From positions 1-64,000 of the forward strand of contig JBEKTZ010000009.1 of assembly GCA_049515535.1 (NCBI GenBank): a DNA stretch of 64,000 nt, in the 5' to 3' direction. This DNA is from Candidatus Aminicenantales bacterium. GTDB lineage: Bacteria; Acidobacteriota; Aminicenantia; Aminicenantales; UBA4085. Below, one piece after another: positions 8,294-19,515 of this stretch. A program made the translations under genes and the position numbers. Within the stretch, counting starts at the first letter, position 1, and every line of letters begins with the position of its first letter. The notes under the pieces were generated by a model. It was not told where the DNA came from and searched no databases. It was given only the letters and a program-made list of their open reading frames with translations.

Positions 8294-11200
8294 ATGTCTG
8301 AAAACCTGATAGAGCGTTACTTGTCCGATATGGGGGAAATCCGTAGGACAGGGGCCAACGTAGCGGAGACTTCGTTCTATCCGGCGTTGGAACGGCTGCT
8401 TTCGGACATCGGGAAGACCCTTTCGCCCAAGGTCCGCTGCGTCATCAATCTTGCAAACCGTGGCGCGGGACTCCCGGACGGCGGCCTTTTCTCGGCCGAT
8501 CAATTCCGCCGCAAAACAGGCGACGAAAACGACAAGGAGAATCCGTTTCTGGTTCAGAACCCGTCGCGCGGCGTGATCGAAGCTAAGTCTCCCGCGGAAG
8601 ACGTCCGTCGGATTTCCGAGACCGAGCAGGTGGAGCGATACTGGAAGCGGTATGGCCTGGTGCTCGTAACCAACTTCCGCGCCTTCGCCGTCGTCGGCCA
8701 AGGCCCGACAGGAAAACCGTGCGTTCTGGAATCCTTCGCTCTGGCCGAATCCGAGAGCGAATTCTGGCGCCTGACCGCTCATCCTCGCTCGACCGCGGCG
8801 GAGCACGGCGAACGCATGTTGGAGTATCTGAAGCGAGTGCTTCTGCTCAACGCACCGCTGGCCGCTCCCCAGGACGTTGCCGGAATTCTCGCCTCCTATG
8901 CGCATGACGCACGACTCCGTATCGAAAAACTGGACCTTCCAGCCCTGATGACCCTACGGCAAGCCCTCGAAGAAGCCCTCGGCCTGCGGTTCGAGGGCGA
9001 CAAGGGCGAGCATTTCTTCCGATCAACGCTCATTCAAACCCTCTTCTATGGCGTCTTCTCGGCTTGGGTCTTGTGGGCGCGGCGACACGACGCCATACCC
9101 GATAAAAAAACCGGATTTGCCGACGCCATCCGCGATTCCGCGGCGCCGTACGCCGTTGCCGGCGGCTTCGACTGGCGCTCCGCCCACTATCTATTACGCG
9201 TGCCCATGCTCCGCGCCCTATTCGTTCAAGTCGCCGATCCCGCCCGTCTCGGAGCGTTGGGTCTGATCGAAGTCCTCGATTGGGCCGCCGCCACCCTCAA
9301 TCGTGTGAATCGCGCCGATTTCTTCAAGTCCTTCGACGAAGGGCATGCCATCCAATATTTCTATGAGCCCTTCTTGCAAGCCTTCGATCCCGAACTCCGC
9401 AAGGAGCTCGGCGTCTGGTACACCCCCGAGGAGATCGTCCGCTATCAGGTTGAACGCGTGGATTCCGTCCTCCGTTCGGAACTCGGTTTGGCCGACGGCC
9501 TGGCCGATCCGAAAGTGATCGTCCTCGATCCCTGCTGCGGCACCGGCACTTACCTTCGGGCCGTCCTCCGCCGCATCGCCGCCACCCTGCATGACAAGGG
9601 CGGCGACGCCCTGGTCGCGAACGATCTCAAGAAAGCCGCCATGGAGCGCGTCTTCGGCTTCGAGATATTGCCCGCGCCATTCGTCATTTCGCATCTCCAA
9701 CTCGGACTGGAACTCGAAACTCTCGGCGCCCCGTTGAGCGACCGCAGCGAGCCGCCCGAGCGCGCTGGGGTCTATCTGACCAACGCCCTCACCGGTTGGG
9801 AGCCGCCTAAAGAAGTCCAGAAAAAAATCGCCTTCCCCGGTTTCGACGAAGAACGCGACGCCGCCGGTAACGTGAAGCAGGAAAAGCCCATCCTCGTCAT
9901 CCTCGGCAACCCACCTTACAACGCCTTTGCCGGCGTCAGTCCCGAAGAAGAGCAAGGCCTTGTCGAACCGTACAAGAAAGGCCTCATTTCCGAGTGGGGC
10001 ATCAAAAAGTTCAACCTCGATGACCTCTACATCCGTTTCTTCCGCCTCGCCGAAAAGCGCATCGCCGAACACGGCGGCCGGGGCGTCGTATCGTTTATTT
10101 CGAACCACTCCTGGGTCAGCGATCCGTCCTTCGTCGTTCTGCGGCAGCATTTGCTCGATTCCTTCGACCGATTTTGGATCGAGAACATGCACGGCAACCG
10201 GAAAATTTCGGAATATGCGCCGGATGGCCGCACCAGTGAAACCATTTTCGCTACCTCAGGATTCTCAGTTGGCATCCAACAAGGCGTTGCCATCTCGTTG
10301 TGGGTAAAACACCCCAAGCGCAAAGGCGATCCGATTGTCCGCTTCCGCGATGATCTCAACGACGCCAAAGCGGGCGAGCGCCGGGCGCATCTCCTCGCAA
10401 ACCTTGAAGACAAGCGCTTCGACGCACAGTACAAAACCTCCAATCCCCGGAAAGACAATCGTTGGAGTTTCCGGCCATCGGATGTGACAAGCGCATATCT
10501 AAAATGGCCGAAGGTAACGGAGCTTTGTGCTCTGCCGCCATACAATGGACCTATCGAGCGGCGCGGCAATTCCCTGATTGTCTTCCCGGACGAGCGGGGG
10601 CGACTGATGCGTGTAGCGGAATATCTTAATCCATCTGTGTCAGACGATGAAATCAGAAATCTTGTGCCCGAGTTCATGAACTCTTCTGGCGAGTTCAATG
10701 CGGTAAAGACCCGCATACAACTCAAGGGCGGAAGATTTAACGCGAACAACATCGTCAGTTATCCATTCAAACCTTTCGATATACGCAACGCATACCTTGA
10801 CCCCAATATTGCGCCTTTGTTCTCTCGTCCTGCGCCACAACTGTTAAAACAGCGGTTCTCAGGCAATCGTTTTTTTATCACCCGTGACACCGCCGATAAA
10901 GACCCGGAAGGCCCCCCCTTTTTCTTTTCCCCAGTTGTTTGCGATTACGACTGCATTTCCGGCCATGCGCGCCATTTTCCGATTCGACTCAAAACAAGGC
11001 CGAACCGCCGGGCAAGTCGAGGTTCGCTTGAAGATCGCGACTTACCCGGCGCGGAAAATGGCGCAGAGAAGATCGCCGCTAATATTTCCCCTTCCGCTCG
11101 TGTTTATCTGGCGTCACTCGGATTATCCAACCCGGACACCGATCAGAAGACCGCCGAACTGATCTGGTATCACGCGTTGGCCATCGGCTATTCGCCCGCG

Positions 11201-11785
11201 TATCTCACCAAGAATGCGGACGGAATTCGGCAGGACTGGCCGAGGATTCCGCTTCCGAAGGAAAAGGATTTGCTGCGCGCCTCCGCGGCTATTGGGCGGC
11301 AGGTGGTGGCTTTGCTGGACACGGAAGCGCCGATTTCCGGTGTGACCGCTGGAAAGATTCGTGATGACCTCAAAACTATCGCCGTTTTTCAGCACGTGGA
11401 TGGGAAACCGGCGAAACCCGAGTCCGGGGATCTTGACTTAACCGCCGGTTGGGGCCACGGCGGCAAGGGCGGCGTCACAATGCCGGGCAAAGGGAAAATC
11501 ATTCGCCGGGATGACAGAGCCTACGACATCTTCCTCAACGCCGTCTCGTGCTGGCGAAACGTGCCCGAGGCGGTGTGGGATTACACGATTGGCGGCTATC
11601 AAATCATCAAGAAGTGGTTGTCATACCGCGAAAAGCCGCTGCTTGGCCGCGGTCTAACCTCTGACGAAGTCCGCTACGTGACCGAAATCGCGCGCCGCCT
11701 GGCGGGACTGGTTTCTTTGGAGCCAGCCTTGGACGACAACTACCGGAAAGTCATCAAAGCAACATACTCCTGGCCCAAGAAATGA
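8294..11785 (+). CDS. Single-chain restriction-modification enzyme (Type IIG/IIL-like: nuclease + N6-adenine MTase + Type ISP-like C-terminal specificity domain)
   Basis: N-terminal PD...EAK nuclease-like motif, YFYEPFL..F, GVWYTP, LDPCCGTGTY (SAM binding), GNPPY (catalytic), C-terminal IGGYQIIKKWLSYR; no helicase motifs. Confidence 0.88.
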   Translation: MSENLIERYLSDMGEIRRTGANVAETSFYPALERLLSDIGKTLSPKVRCVINLANRGAGLPDGGLFSADQFRRKTGDENDKENPFLVQNPSRGVIEAKSPAEDVRRISETEQVERYWKRYGLVLVTNFRAFAVVGQGPTGKPCVLESFALAESESEFWRLTAHPRSTAAEHGERMLEYLKRVLLLNAPLAAPQDVAGILASYAHDARLRIEKLDLPALMTLRQALEEALGLRFEGDKGEHFFRSTLIQTLFYGVFSAWVLWARRHDAIPDKKTGFADAIRDSAAPYAVAGGFDWRSAHYLLRVPMLRALFVQVADPARLGALGLIEVLDWAAATLNRVNRADFFKSFDEGHAIQYFYEPFLQAFDPELRKELGVWYTPEEIVRYQVERVDSVLRSELGLADGLADPKVIVLDPCCGTGTYLRAVLRRIAATLHDKGGDALVANDLKKAAMERVFGFEILPAPFVISHLQLGLELETLGAPLSDRSEPPERAGVYLTNALTGWEPPKEVQKKIAFPGFDEERDAAGNVKQEKPILVILGNPPYNAFAGVSPEEEQGLVEPYKKGLISEWGIKKFNLDDLYIRFFRLAEKRIAEHGGRGVVSFISNHSWVSDPSFVVLRQHLLDSFDRFWIENMHGNRKISEYAPDGRTSETIFATSGFSVGIQQGVAISLWVKHPKRKGDPIVRFRDDLNDAKAGERRAHLLANLEDKRFDAQYKTSNPRKDNRWSFRPSDVTSAYLKWPKVTELCALPPYNGPIERRGNSLIVFPDERGRLMRVAEYLNPSVSDDEIRNLVPEFMNSSGEFNAVKTRIQLKGGRFNANNIVSYPFKPFDIRNAYLDPNIAPLFSRPAPQLLKQRFSGNRFFITRDTADKDPEGPPFFFSPVVCDYDCISGHARHFPIRLKTRPNRRASRGSLEDRDLPGAENGAEKIAANISPSARVYLASLGLSNPDTDQKTAELIWYHALAIGYSPAYLTKNADGIRQDWPRIPLPKEKDLLRASAAIGRQVVALLDTEAPISGVTAGKIRDDLKTIAVFQHVDGKPAKPESGDLDLTAGWGHGGKGGVTMPGKGKIIRRDDRAYDIFLNAVSCWRNVPEAVWDYTIGGYQIIKKWLSYREKPLLGRGLTSDEVRYVTEIARRLAGLVSLEPALDDNYRKVIKATYSWPKK

Positions 11786-11855
11786 TCATGGCGATCATTT
11801 AACAAAGCCTCATGTTCTGAGTACCATATAATACAACGATGACAGGAAATAGATT

Positions 11856-12074
11856 ATGACTATAGCAATATCCGTAAGGCTCCCCAAGGAACTCGTCAAA
11901 CAATTGGACGGCGTCGCCGAGGAAACGGAACGGCCGTGGTCTTTCATTATCCAGAAAGCGCTGGAATCCTATATCGCGGATATCGCCGATCTCAAGGTTG
12001 CTCTCGACCGGCTCCACGACAAGACCGATTCTCTCATTTCGAGTAAGGAACTGAGGAAGTCCCTTGGCTTATAA
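11856..12074 (+). CDS. Ribbon-helix-helix antitoxin (RelB/CopG-like)
   Basis: ISVRLP...LDGVAEETERP.SFII.KALE RHH pattern; overlaps a RelE-like start. Confidence 0.8.
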   Translation: MTIAISVRLPKELVKQLDGVAEETERPWSFIIQKALESYIADIADLKVALDRLHDKTDSLISSKELRKSLGL

Positions 12075-12141
12075 TGTCGTTTATAAAAAGTCTGTCCATC
12101 GCGATTTGAAGAAGCTTTCCAAAAGGGACGCCGGCCGTATG
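12064..12141 (+). pseudogene. RelE/ParE-family toxin truncated after about 26 codons by an IS91-type end
   Basis: MAYNVVYKKSVHRDLKKL is a RelE-like N-terminus; the frame then runs into the repeat starting at 12142. Confidence 0.75.
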
Positions 12142-12263
12142 GAGTGTAAGGATTTGCTTTTTCGCTCTGCACGACTCACGCTCCCATTAAGCGGGGAATC
12201 GACGCTCCCCATCACGAAAAAGAGGATAATCCCGGACGCGGATCGAGTCAAGAACAAGAAATT
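12142..12263 (-). repeat. IS91-type end/promoter module, variant A copy 1
   Basis: Near-identical to 14903-15014 and 18514-18622; TTGACT-17-TATCCT (12251-12223); ends ...AAAGCAAATCCTTACACTC. Confidence 0.85.
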
Positions 12264-12382
12264 GGTCATGATCAAATAGTTTATTCCCAATGATCGGCCG
12301 TTTTTTCCCTTTGATTTTATCTAGCTCTTTTAAAATGTATCGCGGTAACTACACATAAAGGACTTCGGAGAAAGATATTGCA

Positions 12383-12411
12383 TTGACATTGCACAGCAGT
12401 TCTTTTATATT
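12383..12411 (+). promoter_or_regulatory. Putative promoter of the AT-rich operon
   Basis: TTGACA-17 bp-TATATT. Confidence 0.5.
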
Positions 12412-12450
12412 TTTGAAATTCTCGATGACTTGAGTTCTGGGGGAAATTAG

Positions 12451-13248
12451 ATGAAAAAGAATTCAGAACCAACTCATATGTGGGAAACAATCCTATTGAT
12501 AATTGCATATGCAGCATCAATTCTTTTATTATTCTATTTTAAGGTCTTATCGGGCAATAATCTTGTTTTGACTTTCACAACGGCATTTGGGTGGCTGGTT
12601 GCCTTGTTAATCGCAATCATAAACTTAAATAGGGCGCGAAAAGATAACAAGAAAGCAAAAGACTATGAGACTAAAAAAAGATTGGAAATTGATGCTTTCA
12701 AAGAGATCAATGGAACGATAAACGTTCTATCTGATAAACTAACAAATTTGAGCACGTTCTTCCTCGCCACCTTGCCAAATCATCTCAAGAACCACCTTGA
12801 GAACCCAACATTGTTTAAATACGATCCTATAAAAAGAGATTTAGAAAGAGAAGCATTGCGTGTTGGCTTATACGAAGGGATGACTATATTCTTATTGACT
12901 ATTGAAGCCAACGAAATCGCAGTAATCGATTTCGATTATTTAAGGAAATATATAGGCATCCAAATGGAAGATCTTCACAAACTGCTAGATGAGTTTAATA
13001 CCTATTCATCAAAGCTATTCGACCTAACATATATAAAACAGCCACAATCATATTTGGAACTTAAGGATAAGTGTAATAAGATATGGAACTTCATCCTTCT
13101 TATAGAAGGCTACCTTTTTGATTATAGAATCATATTAATGAACTCAATTTTATCAGATATTTTTGCCAGGTCTGTCCCACCTCGAAAACCTAGAGACCCC
13201 AATATCAAAACATTAAAAGAGGTTGCCATCAAGGAAGAACCGGAATAA
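12451..13248 (+). CDS. Hypothetical membrane protein (two N-terminal TM helices + helical domain), AT-rich
   Basis: 265-aa ORF in low-GC DNA; no family recognised. Confidence 0.7.
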   Translation: MKKNSEPTHMWETILLIIAYAASILLLFYFKVLSGNNLVLTFTTAFGWLVALLIAIINLNRARKDNKKAKDYETKKRLEIDAFKEINGTINVLSDKLTNLSTFFLATLPNHLKNHLENPTLFKYDPIKRDLEREALRVGLYEGMTIFLLTIEANEIAVIDFDYLRKYIGIQMEDLHKLLDEFNTYSSKLFDLTYIKQPQSYLELKDKCNKIWNFILLIEGYLFDYRIILMNSILSDIFARSVPPRKPRDPNIKTLKEVAIKEEPE

Positions 13249-13277
13249 AATATTTAATCTTTATTAGGGGGTTATCT

Positions 13278-13778
13278 ATGTCTAATGTAATATTTATTTT
13301 ATTGCCTATGATTCCCTTTATAACTAGAAGCATATTATTCATAAAATATTTCTCTAAAATGGGGGGACAAATTACTAATGAAGAAAAAGATAGAGAGTCA
13401 CATAGATCTTACATTCTTCCCTTGGCTGGATTTAGTTTTGCTGGATTGATCGGCCTAATAGTCGTCGATGCCTCAAAACTCATTCACTATAGTTATCCAA
13501 TATATTATATTTTCTTAAGTTTTATTTTTTTTATTTTTTCAGCTAACTTACAAAGCTACAAATCAAGACTATGGGAAGACCAGATTGCAACGGGTTGCAT
13601 AGACATTGCGAACTTCTGCTTAATTTTATGCATAATAAGCCTATTATTTGCAGCTCATATCGACAAGACAATGACTTATACTCTCGCAGTGATTGCGTTT
13701 ATATTATGGCTATTTGATCATATAATGCGAATGATATTCGAATTTTCTTATTATCATGAAAAGGAAATACAAAAATGA
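13278..13778 (+). CDS. Hypothetical polytopic membrane protein, AT-rich
   Basis: About 5 hydrophobic segments; AGGGGG RBS. Confidence 0.7.
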   Translation: MSNVIFILLPMIPFITRSILFIKYFSKMGGQITNEEKDRESHRSYILPLAGFSFAGLIGLIVVDASKLIHYSYPIYYIFLSFIFFIFSANLQSYKSRLWEDQIATGCIDIANFCLILCIISLLFAAHIDKTMTYTLAVIAFILWLFDHIMRMIFEFSYYHEKEIQK

Positions 13779-13936
13779 GTACAAAAGACGAAAAGACGAA
13801 AGATGTCACTAAGGAGAGAATTATAACAGAGGGGATTGATTTCTGTCGTTGCCCAAAACATGGAATACGATATCCAAAGGGATCTTTTTGTCCGCGTTGC
13901 GAATCAGAAAGGAAGAATCCAAAACCCTCTAAATAA
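13775..13936 (+). CDS. Small putative zinc-binding protein (53 aa)
   Basis: ATGA overlap with the preceding gene; MSTKDEKTKDVTKERIITEGIDFCRCPKHGIRYPKGSFCPRCESERKNPKPSK; below the ORF-track cutoff. Confidence 0.6.
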   Translation: MSTKDEKTKDVTKERIITEGIDFCRCPKHGIRYPKGSFCPRCESERKNPKPSK

Positions 13937-14089
13937 ATGTAAGGCTTCTGATTCTCTTTCGTCTACTAAACGTACCATGACCCTTTTCCTTTTCGACGAC
14001 TTTCTCTAGCCGAAAAAGGTAATTTCAGAAGCACGATTTATCCTAAACTGTCGAATTTATAATAATCTCTAATATTATTAATATAAAGT

Positions 14090-14902
14090 GGTTCATCCGA
14101 CATTCTTGTGGGTAACAGGGTAAAGATCTAAAGCGCCGCAATGGAAATAGATCGCGACCTTGAAATTCTGGCGGTTCCGGTAGCCGTAGGCCATCTTCTT
14201 GATCGTCTGAATCTTGGAATTGAGCCCTTCGCTCACCGCGTTCGTGATCCGATGTCTGAAGTACGTCAGAATCTGAGCCAAGTATTTCCGAAACATTCGG
14301 GCCTTTTCAATCACCGGCTCCAGTCTCGAATGCGTCGCCCAGAAAAACCAGGCCTTAAAATGCCGCGCTGCCCAGGCCAAGCGCGTGTAGCCCCAAAGCT
14401 CGCGAAAACTCTCTTTGATCGCCCACGCCCGGGCCGTCTTCAACTTCTGCCGGCTCAGGCTCCTCAACCGGCTCTTATGCCTGTCGGGAACGTTCTCCTT
14501 CGAGTACAGCCAAAGATATTTGGAGCCGGTCAGCGTCTCGTCGGCCTCCCGCTGAAGTTCCCGATGTTCTTCCTTGCGGACCTCGTCCACCGCCTTGACC
14601 ATGTGCGTCATCAGATGGTAGCGGTCAAAGACGATCTTCTCCCCGGCGTCGGGAACATGATTCCGAATCGAGGCCAGGTATGGGTCCCAGATATCCACGG
14701 CGATGGCTTTGATCTTGGCTCTCTTTTTCTTGGAGAAACGGACAAAATAGCCGTCCAGACTCTCCTGCTTCCGGTCGTCCCCGATATAGTCAACCGCCGC
14801 CCGATCCAAATCGTTGACCAGGGTGATGTAATCGTGCCCTTTGCCCACCGACTTCTCATCGACACCGATCGTCTTGGGTATCCGTTTCTTTTTGCGCTTC
14901 AG
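14090..14902 (-). mobile_element. ISL3-family remnant: transposase C-terminal part plus terminal IR; 5' part replaced by an IS91 end
   Basis: IGVDEKS, IAVDIW, DRYH, TNAVSEGLNSKIQTIKKMAYGYRN; GGTTCATCCG end at 14090. Confidence 0.88.
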
Positions 14903-15862
14903 GGATTTGCTTTTTCGCTCTGCACGACTCACGCTCGCATTAAGCGGGGAATCGACACTCCCCATCACGAAAAAGGATAATCCCGGACGCGGATCGAGTC
15001 AAGAACAAGAAATTTACCACGAAAGCGGCCGGCGGGCCGGCTCAGCGAGCCGGATGACCACAAATGCGCCTAAAAGACAATAGACCCCCATCCCCCATCA
15101 AAACCACTCGTCCTAAAAATACTCCGCCCGCTCTTCGGCCGCCATCAGGGCGACCTCGGTCAAAACTCGCGACGGCGGCGGCTTCTCGGCCACGAACGTC
15201 AGCTTCAGGTGATCAATGATCCGGTCCACGGCGGCATAATCTGTGATGAAGGCCACGACCTTCATCGTCCCTCCACACTTGGGACAGACCATCGGATCGA
15301 CCTCATAGACCTTCCGGATCATGGCCGCCCAGCCCTTGGAAGGGACGGGTTTGAGTTCCTCCTCGACCATCCGTAGGGCGAAAGGATTCCGGCCCGCCTT
15401 CCGCACCTTCCCCCGGTGGGCGTTGGCGTACAGGCTATAGTACCGAACCATGACCTGGCCTTTGTCGGGGATGTGCGAGGTCACCCGGGCGATGAACTCC
15501 AGATAATCCATCGTCTCCCGCTCTGCGCCGTCCTGGCCGTGGCTATAGCCGACCTTACACTCGGGCTCTAAGAACGACAGTCGCTCCAAGGCCAGGACCG
15601 GCCGGATCATGTATTTCCCCACCCGCTCGGCCTCCGGCTTCGTCTTGGCCCGAACCATGCTGTGGACGTTGAAACCGGTGTGAGGCCAAGAGAGCAAGCG
15701 CTCCATCCATTCCGGGCTGAGAAGTTCCCGGCCAACGAGAAACGACAGGACCTCCCGGGCGAAGATCTCCGTTAGCCGCGTGTCGTTAATCCGAGAAATC
15801 TGATGGAAGACACCCGCCGCGTCCACTCCGCCTTCGGTCACCAGAAAATGGAGGTGGGGATG
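14903..15862 (-). mobile_element. IS91-family remnant: 5'-truncated Y2 transposase (15113-15862) and downstream oriIS-like end (variant A copy 2)
   Basis: HPHLHFLVTEGG (HUH) from 15862, GFNVH, YMIRP, RYYSLYAN, CPKCGG; N-terminal Zn domain missing. Confidence 0.88.
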
Positions 15863-15886
15863 CCCTCCCGCGCTCTCTCGCCGCCC

Positions 15887-15996
15887 TTGACAGATTCTGA
15901 GCCCCGATTTATGCTTCCGCCCGGTGGAAAAATGCGGCTATTGAGCCGAAACCGTGCCCGCAGGCGGGCGGAGCCGAAAAGCAAATTCTTATCCTC
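15887..15996 (+). mobile_element. IS91-type end/promoter module, variant B (solo, opposite orientation)
   Basis: TTGACA-17-TATGCT, then 81 nt ending AAAGCAAATTCTTATCCTC. Confidence 0.6.
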
Positions 15997-16123
15997 CCGG
16001 CGGCGCTCAATTCATTCAGCAGCGCAATCGCGAGCCAATTCCATTGGCCGGTGACGATCCCGTCCTACAAGCAATCGTTCGATTTGAATGCGTAGGGGCT
16101 TGTCGAAAAACCCCACTTCGAGG

Positions 16124-16147
16124 CTTCAGGGGTTAAAACCCCTGAAG
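16124..16147. repeat. Perfect palindrome, REP-like
   Basis: CTTCAGGGGTT-AA-AACCCCTGAAG. Confidence 0.55.
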
Positions 16148-16152
16148 AAACC

Positions 16153-16378
16153 TGTAGTGCTCCTCAAAATTCGGACAGGTCCCTAAGGTGTAAAATTCGC
16201 TGCCTCTGAGAGGAGGCGGCAGATGAAACGGCAGCGAAGGCAGTTCAGCGCAGATTGGAAGGCCAAGATTGCCTTGGAGGCGATCAAGGGGCAGCGAACG
16301 ATCCAAGAGATTGCCTCTCATTACGAAATTCATCCCAGCTTGGTGACGCACTGGAAAAAGCAGCTGCTGGAGGGAGCG
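16153..16378 (+). mobile_element. IS3-family left end with truncated OrfA
   Basis: TG-starting end TGTAGTGCTCCTCAAAATTCGGACA, GGAGG RBS, MKRQRRQFSADWKAKIALEAIKG...[11 protein letters not shown]. Confidence 0.8.
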
Positions 16379-16379
16379 T

Positions 16380-16508
16380 CTCTTCGCGTGGCTGCATATC
16401 TTCCGCCGTCTCGTCATCCGCTGGGAATACCACATCCAGAACTTCCTCGGCTTCGTCCACCTCGCCTGCCTGCAACTGCTGCTTAGGCGTCTATGAGACT
16501 GCTTTAGT
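16380..16508. mobile_element. Possible IS5-like end remnant
   Basis: Abrupt junction with IS3 OrfA; the minus-strand peptide [13 protein letters not shown] and the end TAAAGCAGTCTCATAG resemble IS5-group termini (from recall only). Confidence 0.3.
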
Positions 16509-16522
16509 GCCTGTACTGAATC

Positions 16523-16885
16523 TCAGCTCACTCGACGTGGGCGTGTCAGCCAGGCCAAGGTGGCGGCCAGCAATGTGAGCAAAAGGGCGGGCCATAGATC
16601 GGGCGGTCGTGTTAATGAAAGCACGGTCGCCAATCCAACTGTGCAGGTCAGCAGTAGCGCTCCGTAAAAAGTCCACCGCGGCACGAACACTAGCAGCGCT
16701 CCGGTGAGGTCGAGTAGACCCGTCAGGTAGCGGAACCACTGGCCCCACCCGAACGCTACGAATGTCTGCACCGTGTGCAGAGAGCCGGTAAGTTTGGCTG
16801 CCCCGGTGGTCAAGAATGCGAGGCCTAGAAGTACTCTGAGAACACGGATGGCGATCAGGCGTTTCCTGCTTGCTGTCTCTACCAT
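16523..16885 (-). CDS. DoxX-family membrane protein
   Basis: LRVLLGLAF...GAAKL...F..FGW..WFRYLTG..LD pattern, 4 TM; GGAG RBS. Confidence 0.8.
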   Translation of the reverse strand: MVETASRKRLIAIRVLRVLLGLAFLTTGAAKLTGSLHTVQTFVAFGWGQWFRYLTGLLDLTGALLVFVPRWTFYGALLLTCTVGLATVLSLTRPPDLWPALLLTLLAATLAWLTRPRRVS

Positions 16886-16925
16886 GGACTTCTCCTTCCC
16901 AAATCAAAGCGTGCTTACCGCTTAA

Positions 16926-16975
16926 TGCGGATTTTCACGATCTTTCACCCAGGGATTTTCATGATCATTCACCCA
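16926..16975 (+). mobile_element. IS21-like terminal remnant
   Basis: TG start followed by two 23-bp direct repeats GGATTTTCAyGATCwTTCACCCA (16929-16951, 16953-16975). Confidence 0.5.
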
Positions 16976-16987
16976 TCCCCGGGTTTT

Positions 16988-17381
16988 ATTGATAGAAAAT
17001 TCCTTTTCTGGCGCGGCGCAGGCCCCTTGCGTCAGGCTCAGGATTATCCCTTCCCCTCACAGGTTTATTGTATTCTCGGCCGAGTTCAGGTGTCAATTGT
17101 CCCAGCCGCCGACGGAAAAGGCTCCCGCCGGCCAGTTTTCGCGCGCGACGGCTGAGAAAGCGGCCAAACGCGGCCAGGCCGCTCCCCTCTCCTAATCACC
17201 CCCTATTCGTAGTCCCCGCTCTCCTCGGCCGCCATCAAGGCATCCTGCTCAAAGACATGAGACGGCGGCGGCTTCTCGGCCACGAATATCAACTTCAGGT
17301 GACCGATGATCCGGTCGACGACCGCAGGTTCGGTAAATGATGGAACAGCACCCGGTAGAGGACCGTGCGCTCCGGATGGCG
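16988..17381 (-). mobile_element. Internally deleted IS91-family element with end/promoter module (variant C)
   Basis: N-terminal RHPERTVLYRVLFHH joined out of frame to C-terminal TEPAVVDRIIGHLKLIFVAEKPPPSH...* (stop 17203), paralogous to the 15113 transposase end; TTGACA-18-TACAAT (17096-17067); end AAAGGAATTTTCTATCAAT. Confidence 0.75.
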
Positions 17382-17384
17382 AGC

Positions 17385-17612
17385 CTCACGGAGGCTAGGC
17401 GCACCGGCAGCGACGAGTTCTTCGGCGACGCGGAGCTCGCGCGCGTGGTGGGATCGACGCCTGCGTCAGACGACTTGATGCACGCGGTGCTGGACGCACA
17501 CCGCTGGATCGGCGAAGGCACACGCCTCTCCGACGACATCTCGCTCGTCGTGATCGAAAGCGTCGAGCAGGCCGCGCCCGCGGGCGACAGCGCCAGCAAG
17601 GCGACCGGTTGA
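17385..17612 (+). pseudogene. C-terminal fragment of a PP2C/SpoIIE-type phosphatase
   Basis: LTEA...EFFG...DDISLVVI motif; 5' part replaced by the IS91 remnant. Confidence 0.6.
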
Positions 17613-17621
17613 GCGGCAGTC

Positions 17622-18494
17622 TCAGGGCGCGTTCTGCAGTTGAAGCGTCACGTGTCTCCGGCGGGTCAGGTTCGGAGCGACGACACACTGTGACAACGTT
17701 TCGTCACCGCACACGCGAACGCGCCACACCAGCCGGTTGTCCATCTCGGCGTCGAGGATTCTGCCGGTGGCACGATCCACGGTACTTCGCACCGTGAACT
17801 CCTCGCATCCCCACAGGACGACGAACCGCGATCCGTCGGCGCGAACCATCTCGAAGTTGTTGCCGACGCTTCCGCAGACCGGCGCTTCCATCCACGGACG
17901 GTGCATCCGCCATGCGGCGCCGCTCGGGGGCAGGAACTGCGTGACGAACCTCGCACGTCGCGCATCCAGGGCTTCAAGACGCACGGTCACGACCAACCGG
18001 TCTCTCCCGACTCGAAAGCTCGCACCATTCGACCAGTCGCCGATCACGAATTCCGGTCGAGTATACGAGTCGCCGGGAACGTGGACTTTCCGGCTGCCCG
18101 CCAGCGGACTCACGGAAAAGAACAGCGTGTACAGATCCGTCACCAGCCCGAGAAGATCCGCGTCATCGGCCCCGGTGAGCGATGCGATGACCGTCCGCGG
18201 ATGCGCGAGTAGATCGTACGGCGCGAGCGCCATCGGTCGTTCCCCCGCCGCCGTGTCCCTGACCGAGAGCCACTCGACCTGTTCCTGGACCACGCCATCA
18301 CGCTCGACGACGTTCAGCCGGACGGTCGCCAACAGCTCGGCTGGATCACCTTCAGTGCTCGTGCGCATTTCGTACAGGAGATGGTCGCCGCGTGACAGTC
18401 GACGCTCGTACCGATAGGAGTCTTGCCGCGACAACCCTGCCTGAGTGCAGATGAGCAGCGCCCCTCCGACGAATAGCAGACTCGTTCGACGCAT
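17622..18494 (-). CDS. Exported hypothetical protein (start ATG 18494)
   Basis: Signal peptide MRRTSLLFVGGALLICTQAG; the ORF-track extension to 18587 only reads the repeat. Confidence 0.7.
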   Translation of the reverse strand: MRRTSLLFVGGALLICTQAGLSRQDSYRYERRLSRGDHLLYEMRTSTEGDPAELLATVRLNVVERDGVVQEQVEWLSVRDTAAGERPMALAPYDLLAHPRTVIASLTGADDADLLGLVTDLYTLFFSVSPLAGSRKVHVPGDSYTRPEFVIGDWSNGASFRVGRDRLVVTVRLEALDARRARFVTQFLPPSGAAWRMHRPWMEAPVCGSVGNNFEMVRADGSRFVVLWGCEEFTVRSTVDRATGRILDAEMDNRLVWRVRVCGDETLSQCVVAPNLTRRRHVTLQLQNAP

Positions 18495-18513
18495 CGGTCT
18501 CAAATTATAGGTA

Positions 18514-18622
18514 GAGTGTAAGGATTTGCTTTTTCGCTCTGCACGACTCACGCTCCCATTAAGCGGGGAATCGACACTCCCCATCACGAAAAAGGATAAT
18601 CCCGGACGCGGATCGAGTCAAG
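18514..18622 (-). repeat. IS91-type end/promoter module, variant A copy 3
   Basis: Matches 12142-12252; TTGACT-17-TATCCT (18621-18593). Confidence 0.85.
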
Positions 18623-18707
18623 CCGATGGGGAGGAAGCGCTCCCCATCCCCCTCGGCCATCCGCACGAGGGGCTTTGAGGATCCGCACGTTGTTTAAAAA
18701 GCGCAGC

Positions 18708-19160
18708 TTATCCCTTTCGGGATTCCGCGCTCAGCAGTTTTATTAAGAATTTCAGGTCTTCTCGGTCCTTGGGACGGCCGGCGGCCTTCTTCATGCGGAT
18801 CATATCCTCGAGCGAGGGAAAAAAGACTTCGGTTTTTCCAATCTTGCCGGAGATCTTATGCTTCCAGATATCCTTAAAGGAAACGCCCTTGACGAATGGG
18901 TGGATATCGGTTTCCAGGACGTATTGTCGGATGAGGACCTTGTGGGTCAAAAAGTCGGTCTCGTCGAAATCGGCCAGGTCATACCCGAATCGCCGGAGGG
19001 CTTTCATGACTCTTCGGATATTGGCCCGCGTCGGCTTAACAAAAAGATCGATGTCCAGCGTGGCTCGAGCATAACCGTACACGGGAAAGGCCGTCGCTCC
19101 GATAATGACGAAGATGGCCCTATTTTCTTTTAAATATTGAAGGAGTCGTTCCATACCCAT
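18708..19160 (-). CDS. Nucleotidyltransferase-fold protein (DUF6036-like)
   Basis: IIGATA...YG..RATLDIDL, KKAAGRPKDREDL. Confidence 0.8.
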   Translation of the reverse strand: MGMERLLQYLKENRAIFVIIGATAFPVYGYARATLDIDLFVKPTRANIRRVMKALRRFGYDLADFDETDFLTHKVLIRQYVLETDIHPFVKGVSFKDIWKHKISGKIGKTEVFFPSLEDMIRMKKAAGRPKDREDLKFLIKLLSAESRKG

Positions 19161-19323
19161 GGCGTCGGAGCATAGTCCGCATTTCCCGGTTTTTTCGTTC
19201 CATGAGAAGAAAGCGTTGGCCGGGGGTTAGCGATCGCAAATAGTCCAATTCGAATTCGATCTCGCGGTCATCGTTCGCGGTCTTGAGAAGGAGGATTCCT
19301 TTCGCGTTTTTCGTGCGATTCAC
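19120..19323 (-). CDS. Small partner protein of the nucleotidyltransferase (probable leaderless GTG start)
   Basis: E.ELDYLRSLTPGQRF motif; overlaps the NTase gene; TATAAT 6 nt upstream of the GTG. Confidence 0.6.
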   Translation of the reverse strand: MNRTKNAKGILLLKTANDDREIEFELDYLRSLTPGQRFLLMERKNREMRTMLRRHGYGTTPSIFKRK

Positions 19324-19376
19324 GCGAATATTATACCACAAAATCAGCGCGGTGACCGCGTTTAGAGACGTCCATA

Positions 19377-19515
19377 GCCAAGGAAACGGAACGGCCGCGG
19401 TCTTTCATTATCCAGAAAGCGCTGGAATCCTATATCGCGGATTTCGCCGATCTCCAGATCGCTCTCGACCGGCTCCGCGACAAGACCGATCCTCTCATTT
19501 CGGGTAAAGAACTGA
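19377..19515 (+). repeat. Partial second copy of the RHH antitoxin gene (direct repeat of 11916-12054)
   Basis: 139 bp aligned by eye with about 10 mismatches. Confidence 0.85.

Follow-up and report, generated by a model that had tools for sequence, protein, structure and literature searches.

Probable origin-side ends of decayed IS91-family elements with a predicted outward promoter at a fixed distance from their terminus in a Candidatus Aminicenantales genome

The first 64,000 nucleotides (nt) of contig JBEKTZ010000009.1 in the assembly GCA_049515535.1 of a Candidatus Aminicenantales bacterium, hereafter the window, contain between positions 12142 and 18622 five short units, in each of which a sigma70-like promoter motif precedes a conserved terminus. 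With good confidence, these units can be regarded as ends on the origin side (oriIS, 3') that remain from decayed elements of an undescribed clade within the insertion sequence (IS) family IS91 which is common in Aminicenantes-type genomes, with a promoter that would benefit the element; the reading ranked first is that the promoter is kept for an element-level role. A full element would be ~1.6 kb long and consist of a left end on the terIS side with a subterminal hairpin, a transposase gene tnpA encoding ~423 amino acids (aa), a spacer of ~100 nt and, on the right side, an outward sigma70 promoter of the host type followed by an origin module of ~70 nt that ends in …AAAAGSAAATTCYTAT. The promoter would fire through the origin into the flanking DNA, and its fixed distance from the end would reflect the constant length of an origin module needed for recognition by the transposase, not an RNA. 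As the promoter is conserved where the neighbouring sequence varies and no tnpA promoter is visible, it may be retained for the element's own benefit, either opening or priming the origin or reading over an ori-ter junction into tnpA. In solo copies the promoter would be a leftover which may incidentally drive downstream genes, with an exported-protein gene and a DoxX gene as candidates in the window.

Direct reading of positions 11800-19000 together with a repeat finder located all five units where the original prediction had placed them, and a promoter scan returned hexamers identical to the claimed ones. Three copies with a mutual identity of 96-99% run from promoter to end on the minus strand and share TTGACT-17-TATCCT, namely A1 (12142..12263), a solo oriIS end recovered by sequence reading, repeat finder and promoter scan, A2 (14903..15014), an oriIS end still attached to its transposase fragment, and A3 (18514..18622), again a solo oriIS end. 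The two diverged oriIS ends, B on the plus strand (15887..15996, TTGACA-17-TATGCT, terminus …AAAAGCAAATTCTTAT) and C on the minus strand (16988..17096, TTGACA-18-TACAAT, terminus …AAAAGGAATTTTCTAT), keep the layout of the A type with a mostly different middle sequence, and unit B has a single relative in the source genome (C14:101163-101270). All five units end ~75-80 nt past the promoter in …AAAAG(C/G)AA(A/T)T(C/T)(C/T)YTA(T/C). In A1, the -35 hexamer TTGACT occupies 12251-12246 and the -10 hexamer TATCCT 12228-12223, the terminus …AAATCCTTAC ends at 12146 and is followed by ACTC to 12142, with an inner boundary 11 nt upstream of CTTGAC. In A2, with its -35 at 15002 and its -10 ending at 14974, the similarity stops at …AAATCC (14903), where the unit abuts a truncated ISL3 transposase gene; similarity to A1 and A3 is lost 8 nt earlier (…AAATCC then CTGAAG versus …AAATCCTTACACTC), and these 8 nt may be part of the element or of its target. 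An intact ISL3 copy, sought in the source genome to place the exact A2 boundary, was not found there. A3 is cut one base upstream of TTGACT and its other end lies 16 nt before the ATG (18497) of the exported-protein gene. A perfect 9-bp hairpin, GATGGGGAG-N6-CTCCCCATC in minus-strand reading, is located at 18623-18640, two bases from the inner boundary of A3.

Two of the units lie directly behind IS91 transposase 3' ends, as had been claimed. The stop codon at 15113-15115 of an IS91-family (Y2 HUH) transposase fragment (15116..15877, minus strand) precedes the -35 of A2 (15002) by 111 nt, and a second transposase remnant on the same strand (17209..17346; 46 aa, C-terminal) ends at 17209, 113 nt upstream of the -35 of C (17096). 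The larger fragment comprises the C-terminal 254 aa of ~423, lacks the zinc-binding N-terminal domain and has a Pfam Y2_Tnp match at 15113-15841 on the minus strand (PF04986, 45.2 bits, cut-off 20.9). The stretches …HPHLHFLV… and …RYYSLYANAH… in its translation we take, by eye, to be putative HUH and Y-x3-Y motifs. Against the NCBIfam model NF033538 (transpos_IS91) the fragment scores 87.6 bits, below the cut-off. Membership in the IS91 family is nevertheless secure because two full-length relatives, L020 and L047, combine PF14319 (Zn_Tnp_IS91) with PF04986 (Y2_Tnp), and L020 reaches 207.9 bits against NF033538 (cut-off 125). These belong to 77 relative loci, mostly in Candidatus Aminicenantes metagenome-assembled genomes (MAGs), with 47-81% identity over a fragment of 242 aa; open frames of 422-436 aa are present at eleven of them. 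An assignment to the ISCR elements can be dismissed, since the transposase obtains 139.8 bits against the ISCR clade Ia model NF052416, far under its cut-off of 925.

The units are found 100-165 nt past transposase C-termini in the source genome, where C-terminal remnants stand ~100 nt before units at C12:73294, 48357 and 61653, C10:140513 and C14:101064, and in 11 of the 47 modules of five complete related chromosomes. The terminus of the clade, …AAATTCYTAT, follows 200-235 nt past the stop codon, and in the relatives the sequence of the left end bears no relation to that of the right end. Among the four bases that follow …YTAT the pattern is only weak: position +1 is C or A in 52 of 66 cases, and position +4 is T in 40 of 66. 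Transposase family, position after the C-termini and the terminal TTCCTAT-type motif all uphold the assignment of the units to IS91-type ends.

That a promoter lies at a fixed distance from the end was borne out in diverged relatives when the 3' flanks of homologous transposases were collected. Flanks of 200 nt or more were available for 64 relative C-termini, and 49 of these possess the strict motif TTGA[CT]-N17-19-TAnnnT at the same place, 94-130 nt past the stop codon. Alignment of 82 units from the -35 onwards left 67 after removal of 15 truncated or badly aligned ones, and 40 representatives less than 80% identical; in all 67, the promoter spacer is 17-18 nt long and 70-73 nt separate the -10 from the end of AAATYC. 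In the 40 representatives the information content amounts to 1.4-2.0 bits over the TTGAC of the -35, to 1.5, 1.5, 0.7, 0.1, 0.2 and 1.4 bits over the six positions of the -10, to 1.55 bits at a single G 4 nt before the -10, and to a mean of ~0.4 bits over the spacer sequence; it is 0.0-0.9 bits in the ~50 nt after the start region and mostly 1.8-2.0 bits in the terminal AAAAGSAAATTCYTAT (last 16 nt). A short GATGG-like box is conserved at the predicted transcript start, and the origin module is consequently conserved at both ends, in this box and in the terminal 16 nt. A short open reading frame (ORF) starting from the ATG of the box was considered and rejected, as several subfamilies stop after two codons or have no ATG. 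Promoters of this type are used by the host itself, with a correctly placed upstream match of at least 10/12 for 10 of its 49 tRNA genes, compared to 1 of 49 in the antisense control and 17 of 2000 random 120-mers. The combined promoter-plus-terminus pattern has 47 matches in the five complete related chromosomes, while the reversed control pattern has none, so that its frequency goes well beyond chance. On the grounds of the 49 of 64 flanks and the constant distance in all 67 units, the predicted promoter is considered a real, selected feature of this clade with a constrained spacing.

The same hexamers could be binding sites of the transposase or a host factor at the origin which resemble a promoter by accident. 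Their location immediately inside the origin module at fixed spacing would suit such a role, as would the conserved G 4 nt before the -10, which is outside the standard consensus. However, both hexamers match host tRNA promoters, the spacer length of 17-18 nt is kept despite sequence drift, TGn precedes the -10 in variants with a weak -35 (sequences read by eye), and promoters at the equivalent place in ISCR1 have been demonstrated to work, according to the part of the report available (PMC6218425), which makes accidental resemblance the least probable of the explanations weighed here. With respect to a folding of the promoter region reminiscent of an sso, palindromes in the promoter spacer are restricted to certain subfamilies.

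A fixed distance invites the alternative that the ~70-nt origin transcript is itself functional, whether as a small RNA, as a leader or as a primer of second-strand synthesis. Its length from promoter to end is constant while the sequence varies, the GATGG-like box sits at the predicted transcript start, and RNAs are located at the ends of other IS families (IS110/ISPpu9), as far as the partially available sources describe. On the other hand, the functional structured RNA of ~75 nt that had been postulated found no support. RNAalifold predicted no consensus pair in either alignment (67 local sequences, both strands; 36 representatives, top strand), and an Rfam scan of positions 11500-19500 with E values up to 1 matched nothing. 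The 75-nt segment of 42 representatives is indistinguishable in folding from mononucleotide shuffles, as RNA or DNA and on both strands, with mean z-scores of -0.26 (top) and 0.02 (bottom) for RNA and of -0.54 and -0.32 for DNA, and z below -1.64 in 4 of 42. The GGGGA-N8-TCCCC hairpin reported for the A type is present in A1-A3, but the copies nearest to these disrupt it with no compensating change (TCCAC in C3 and C11). An unstructured run-off or primer RNA is compatible with these fold tests; altogether, a functional origin RNA is very unlikely. The simplest reading is that the fixed distance equals the constant length of the origin module, with the promoter directly inside it; IS91 can transpose with no more of its right end than the final 82 bp plus the flanking tetranucleotide, as stated in the accessible part of a preprint (bioRxiv 10.1101/2025.01.24.634351).

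Which benefit the element may draw from the promoter has been approached from the left end. In relatives (L024, L083 and L052), the hairpin CGTCAAC-N4-GTTGACG followed by TTTTCT lies ~140 nt before the start of tnpA; it is probably the terIS palindrome and also resembles a weak intrinsic terminator oriented against transcription that enters from outside. The 200 nt before tnpA contain no sigma70-like site of at least 9/12 in 10 of 11 full-length relatives, and a site of this quality is found at the homologous downstream place in 8 of 10 assessable ones (L042 has no flank; L030 and L048 fall below the threshold). In the L020 element, scanned over its full length on both strands, the outward promoter is the sole site. 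The full-length relatives have the start codon of tnpA inside the palindrome CTCCCGCCATGGCGGGAG, with no Shine-Dalgarno sequence visible before the gene. At L020:2453-2470 and in aligned relatives, it was observed to lie in the loop of a perfect palindrome of the CTCCCGCC ATGG CGGGAG type. The start-codon palindrome may be a translational lock on the transposase.

These observations have led to the alternative that the outward promoter drives tnpA and becomes productive only once ori and ter are joined, similar to IS911. Besides the lack of a site before tnpA in 10 of 11 full-length relatives, where the sole strong site is the outward one, this would be consistent with the formation of single- and double-stranded circles by IS91 with ori and ter juxtaposed, as described in the part of the preprint at hand (bioRxiv 10.1101/2025.01.24.634351). 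Nevertheless, a transcript would have to traverse the origin (~70 nt) and then a left end of ~170 nt including the 7-bp hairpin and T-run, and the left end also holds the palindrome burying the start codon; an ori end abutting a ter-like end was seen in 0 of 68 cases; the double-stranded circle of IS91 is no insertion substrate, according to the same part of that source (bioRxiv 10.1101/2025.01.24.634351); and a weak non-consensus tnpA promoter would fall under the threshold used. Transcription from a junction is therefore judged unlikely, and tnpA may alternatively rely on weak or external transcription. A somewhat broader proposal, doubtful as well and put forward tentatively, is that the outward promoter is the only promoter of the element and part of its transposition, either expressing tnpA only when ori and ter are joined or transcribing across the origin so as to open or prime it. 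If true, the abundant short solo ends with their cut just before the promoter would be the products of prematurely terminated rolling-circle transfer from ori, comparable to 5'-truncated long interspersed nuclear elements (LINEs).

Decay of the clade is evident beyond the window. The source genome is a draft MAG of 3.45 Mb in 32 contigs, of which the window represents contig C9, and a BLAST search with the five units identified 28 places; 25 were aligned, three short ones set aside, and promoter and terminus are both present in 22 of the 25. Full-length protein queries recovered ~19 transposase fragments and no intact gene in this genome, although an active identical multi-copy element may be lost from the assembly of a draft MAG. 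Five left-end remnants occur in the source genome, none of them inside the window. Of the 71 transposase matches in the five complete related chromosomes, two are full length, compared to 47 modules, so that the proposed persistence of the modules without an intact transposase holds. The 47 modules comprise 31 whose upstream 300 nt are free of any transposase piece, 11 located 100-165 nt behind a C-terminus, and five behind other pieces. An internally deleted element at C12:22288-22792 retains the first 93 tnpA codons ~110 nt before a complete promoter-plus-ori module and is a possible non-autonomous derivative with both ends, like a miniature inverted-repeat transposable element (MITE).

Solo ends are thus commoner than intact copies. 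The inner ends of six solo subfamily-A copies in the source genome, for which close references exist, lie 0, 11, 31, 34, 35 and 46 nt upstream of the -35, and three of the six end at the small GGCCCGCCGGCC palindrome. Of the 31 solos in complete genomes, 23 could be aligned to references that are 68-93% (mostly 68-80%) identical, and 14 of these end within 50 nt of the -35; this pile-up may be an effect of where alignments end, and at least 8 solos keep undetected C-terminal coding sequence. The excess of short ori-proximal copies could result from premature rolling-circle termination, from a surrogate ter site, or from deletion combined with detection bias.

The prevalence of solos, 31 of 47 modules in five complete genomes, is also what an array of portable promoters would display, in which solo modules are kept by host selection and drive adjacent cargo in a cassette-like arrangement. 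The promoter is always kept in the six solo A copies ending 0-46 nt upstream of the -35, the exported-protein gene starts 16 nt beyond A3, and DoxX lies in the direction of C. Promoter retention is, however, partly an ascertainment effect because copies were detected via the unit itself, and the remaining units read into disrupted or fragmentary genes: A1 into a disrupted toxin-antitoxin locus (antisense), A2 into a truncated ISL3 transposase gene and B into an IS3 fragment. When the modules were counted with their downstream genes, the next long ORF of the 22 source-genome units was co-directional in 13 cases and opposite in 8, with one contig end, which is not a significant bias and reveals no cassette logic; this test uses a crude longest-ORF call by which A2 is mis-called, as its downstream ISL3 gene is co-directional by Pfam. 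The notion of an 'integron-free cassette array' did not stand up either. No integrase is present among 14 scanned ORFs of the window, no recombinase, recombination sites or regular cassette boundaries were found there, the borders consist of IS ends that face either way and have pieces of IS in the intervals, and the intervening blocks of IS debris and unrelated fragments differ in GC and content. Selection by the host for such an array is quite unlikely.

Several findings weigh against the preferred reading, a promoter that the IS91-type element keeps for itself. The activity of the promoter is deduced from its sequence. Fifteen of the 64 flanks lack the strict motif, most of them being near variants (CTGAC; TTTACT or TTGAAC with TGn before the -10) and some flanks having lost the region, and the 24 transposase C-termini of the complete genomes include 15 with no strict module at a distance of up to 300 nt. 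No structure found accounts for the unvarying length of the variable stretch of 50 nt. The left-end hairpin and T-run could stop transcripts arriving over a junction, and a ter-like hairpin directly after the ori end, the tandem or junction form, is present in none of the 68 ends. Over greater evolutionary distances, neither promoter nor spacing is maintained. Of 11 records for comparison, obtained by tblastn against plasmids (25-39% identity), one which ends 123 nt after the gene was excluded; a TTCCTAT-type motif follows 160-235 nt after the gene in 7 of 10 (IS91, ISCR1, ISCR2, Rhizobium, Shigella, E. coli and Trichlorobacter; the match in Pediococcus is doubtful), but no site of at least 9/12 lies ~70 nt before it in the assessed plasmid records, and IS91, ISCR2 and four other plasmid-borne members have no site of at least 8/12 at a comparable place. 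The Trichlorobacter element (39% identical), which shares the terminal GAAAAAGCAAATTCCTAT of the clade, has TTGACG-18-TATACA just 10 nt before its terminal A-run.

The region is pieced together from foreign DNA and the debris of IS elements and resembles an IS graveyard, in which insertions and deletions are nested, rather than an organised array, as indicated by ISL3, IS3-type helix-turn-helix (HTH) and IS91 fragments, contrasts in GC content and a partial antitoxin duplicate. According to Pfam, an ISL3-family DDE transposase gene (14093-14968 as listed, 14093-14902 up to A2, minus strand) is truncated by A2 at its 5' end and N-terminus, which is the context for nested IS insertions, and an IS3-type HTH fragment (16223-16486, plus strand) precedes the DoxX gene (16523-16885, minus strand) at which unit C points. 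The transposase fragment at 15116-15877 is broken at ~15880, on its N-terminal side, by unit B in inverted orientation, a junction that marks a rearrangement. The gene at 17622-18497 (minus strand), whose product has an N-terminus resembling a signal peptide, begins 16 nt beyond A3. The GC content falls to 31-35% at 12400-14000 and rises to 64-66% at 17200-18400, compared to ~57% for the genome.

On the far side, A1 interrupts the start of a putative RelE/ParE-type toxin gene (read by eye; Pfam has no match) located 3' of a ribbon-helix-helix (RHH) antitoxin gene identified by Pfam (11856-12074, plus strand), of which a partial copy lacking the 5' part is present at 19377-19515, 93% identical to 11916-12054 (139 nt). 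These antitoxin duplicates flank the IS-rich 7.3 kb on both sides, and the second one precedes a gene that by eye resembles one for tyrosyl-tRNA synthetase. The block 12451-13936, which separates A1 from the ISL3 remnant, contains three co-directional ORFs (265, 166 and 53 aa) of 31-35% GC with no Pfam match; it is foreign DNA, and the product of 166 aa looks by eye like a membrane-embedded protein. A tandem 23-nt direct repeat (GGATTTTCACGATCTTTCACCCA, two copies, 91% identical) at 16929-16975, between the end of unit C and the start of DoxX, may be an operator or a leftover of another element. Directly upstream of the IS-rich patch, an ORF of 1163 aa (8294-11785) with N6_Mtase, Eco57I-like and Type ISP C-terminal domains is predicted to encode a Type ISP/IIG restriction-modification enzyme.

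The assembly was compared with a second, independent set of contigs, built from the run that is its likely source (97% of sampled words). These contigs break inside every A copy, at 12171-12234, 14932-15135 and 18543-18593, and the order of the blocks between the A copies for this reason lacks independent confirmation, while B and C are contained in one unbroken independent contig of 1642 nt (15742-17383). Contig depth is 37-38 on 11952-12171 and 12234-14932, 22-28 on 15135-18543 and 34.5 on 18593-19200, and the source population is probably heterogeneous. As A2 and A3 are direct repeats with 99% identity, the drop in depth suggests a sub-population without the 3.6 kb between A2 and A3, or a strain join; the contigs of four runs do not bridge the A copies and would not reveal an A2-A3 deletion, because the repeat is identical. 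A deletion variant or a strain join leaves the identity of the units unchanged.

With respect to annotation, modules of ~110 nt of this type mimic regulon signatures or new RNAs and should be masked or labelled as transposon ends. As the predicted strength of each promoter is comparable to that of host tRNA-gene promoters, solo ends may rewire their neighbours in uncultured organisms. The conservation of the outward promoter, the spacer of constant length and free sequence and the lack of a visible tnpA promoter provide handles on the expression and origin activation of IS91-type elements, which are poorly known.

Among known systems, the canonical IS91, IS801 and IS1294 resemble this clade in transposase family, domain order, two unlike ends and a subterminal left palindrome, and IS91 also in its terminal …AAATTCCTAT motif and an origin module of ~80 bp. 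Transposase identity to the canonical family is only 25-32%, however, and in contrast to the clade IS91 has no site of at least 8/12 in the 130 nt before its end; its upstream region contains orf121 with the promoter P_orf121, as the partially available source describes, and the clade conserves no equivalent of the pair of subterminal ori palindromes reported for IS91 and IS801. In IS911-type junction promoters (IS3, IS30, IS21, IS256), an outward element of the right end can act on the transposase gene once the ends join, as summarized in the available part of a review (PMC9330008), yet those are DDE elements with copy-out/paste-in transposition which carry -35 and -10 on different ends, whereas the clade combines a complete promoter on one end with an HUH transposase. 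A literature search, with subscription journals outside its scope, returned no IS91-family elements of Aminicenantes and no conserved outward promoter at fixed distance in the family. The closest precedent is ISCR1, which like the clade possesses a rolling-circle Y2 transposase and an oriIS downstream of the gene with a TTCCTAT-type end, and whose complete outward promoters PCR1-1 and PCR1-2 (POUT) inside the oriIS end raise downstream expression, according to the part of the study available (PMC6218425); ISCR-like elements in general contain complete outward promoters, as the accessible part of the review states (PMC9330008). The predicted promoter of the clade is likewise a sigma70 promoter on the oriIS side reading outward. 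While the principle is known, strength, spacing and clade-wide conservation are particular to this clade. The ISCR1 hexamers are poor (TAAACG-N17-TAAGAT for PCR1-1 and TTCGGA-N18-TTTATA, as given in the same part of PMC6218425), compared to matches of 9-11/12 in the clade; the -10 of PCR1-1 is ~44 nt from the end, compared to 70-73 nt with an insert of variable sequence and constant length; and ISCR1 has its own Prcr1 promoter, for which the clade shows no equivalent before tnpA. Read by eye, the -10 of PCR1-1 is followed by 6 nt, GATGAGG and then AAAAAGG before the terminus, which is the order of boxes in the clade minus the insert of ~45 nt. This likeness hints that the outward promoter is ancestral to ISCR1 and to the clade described here.

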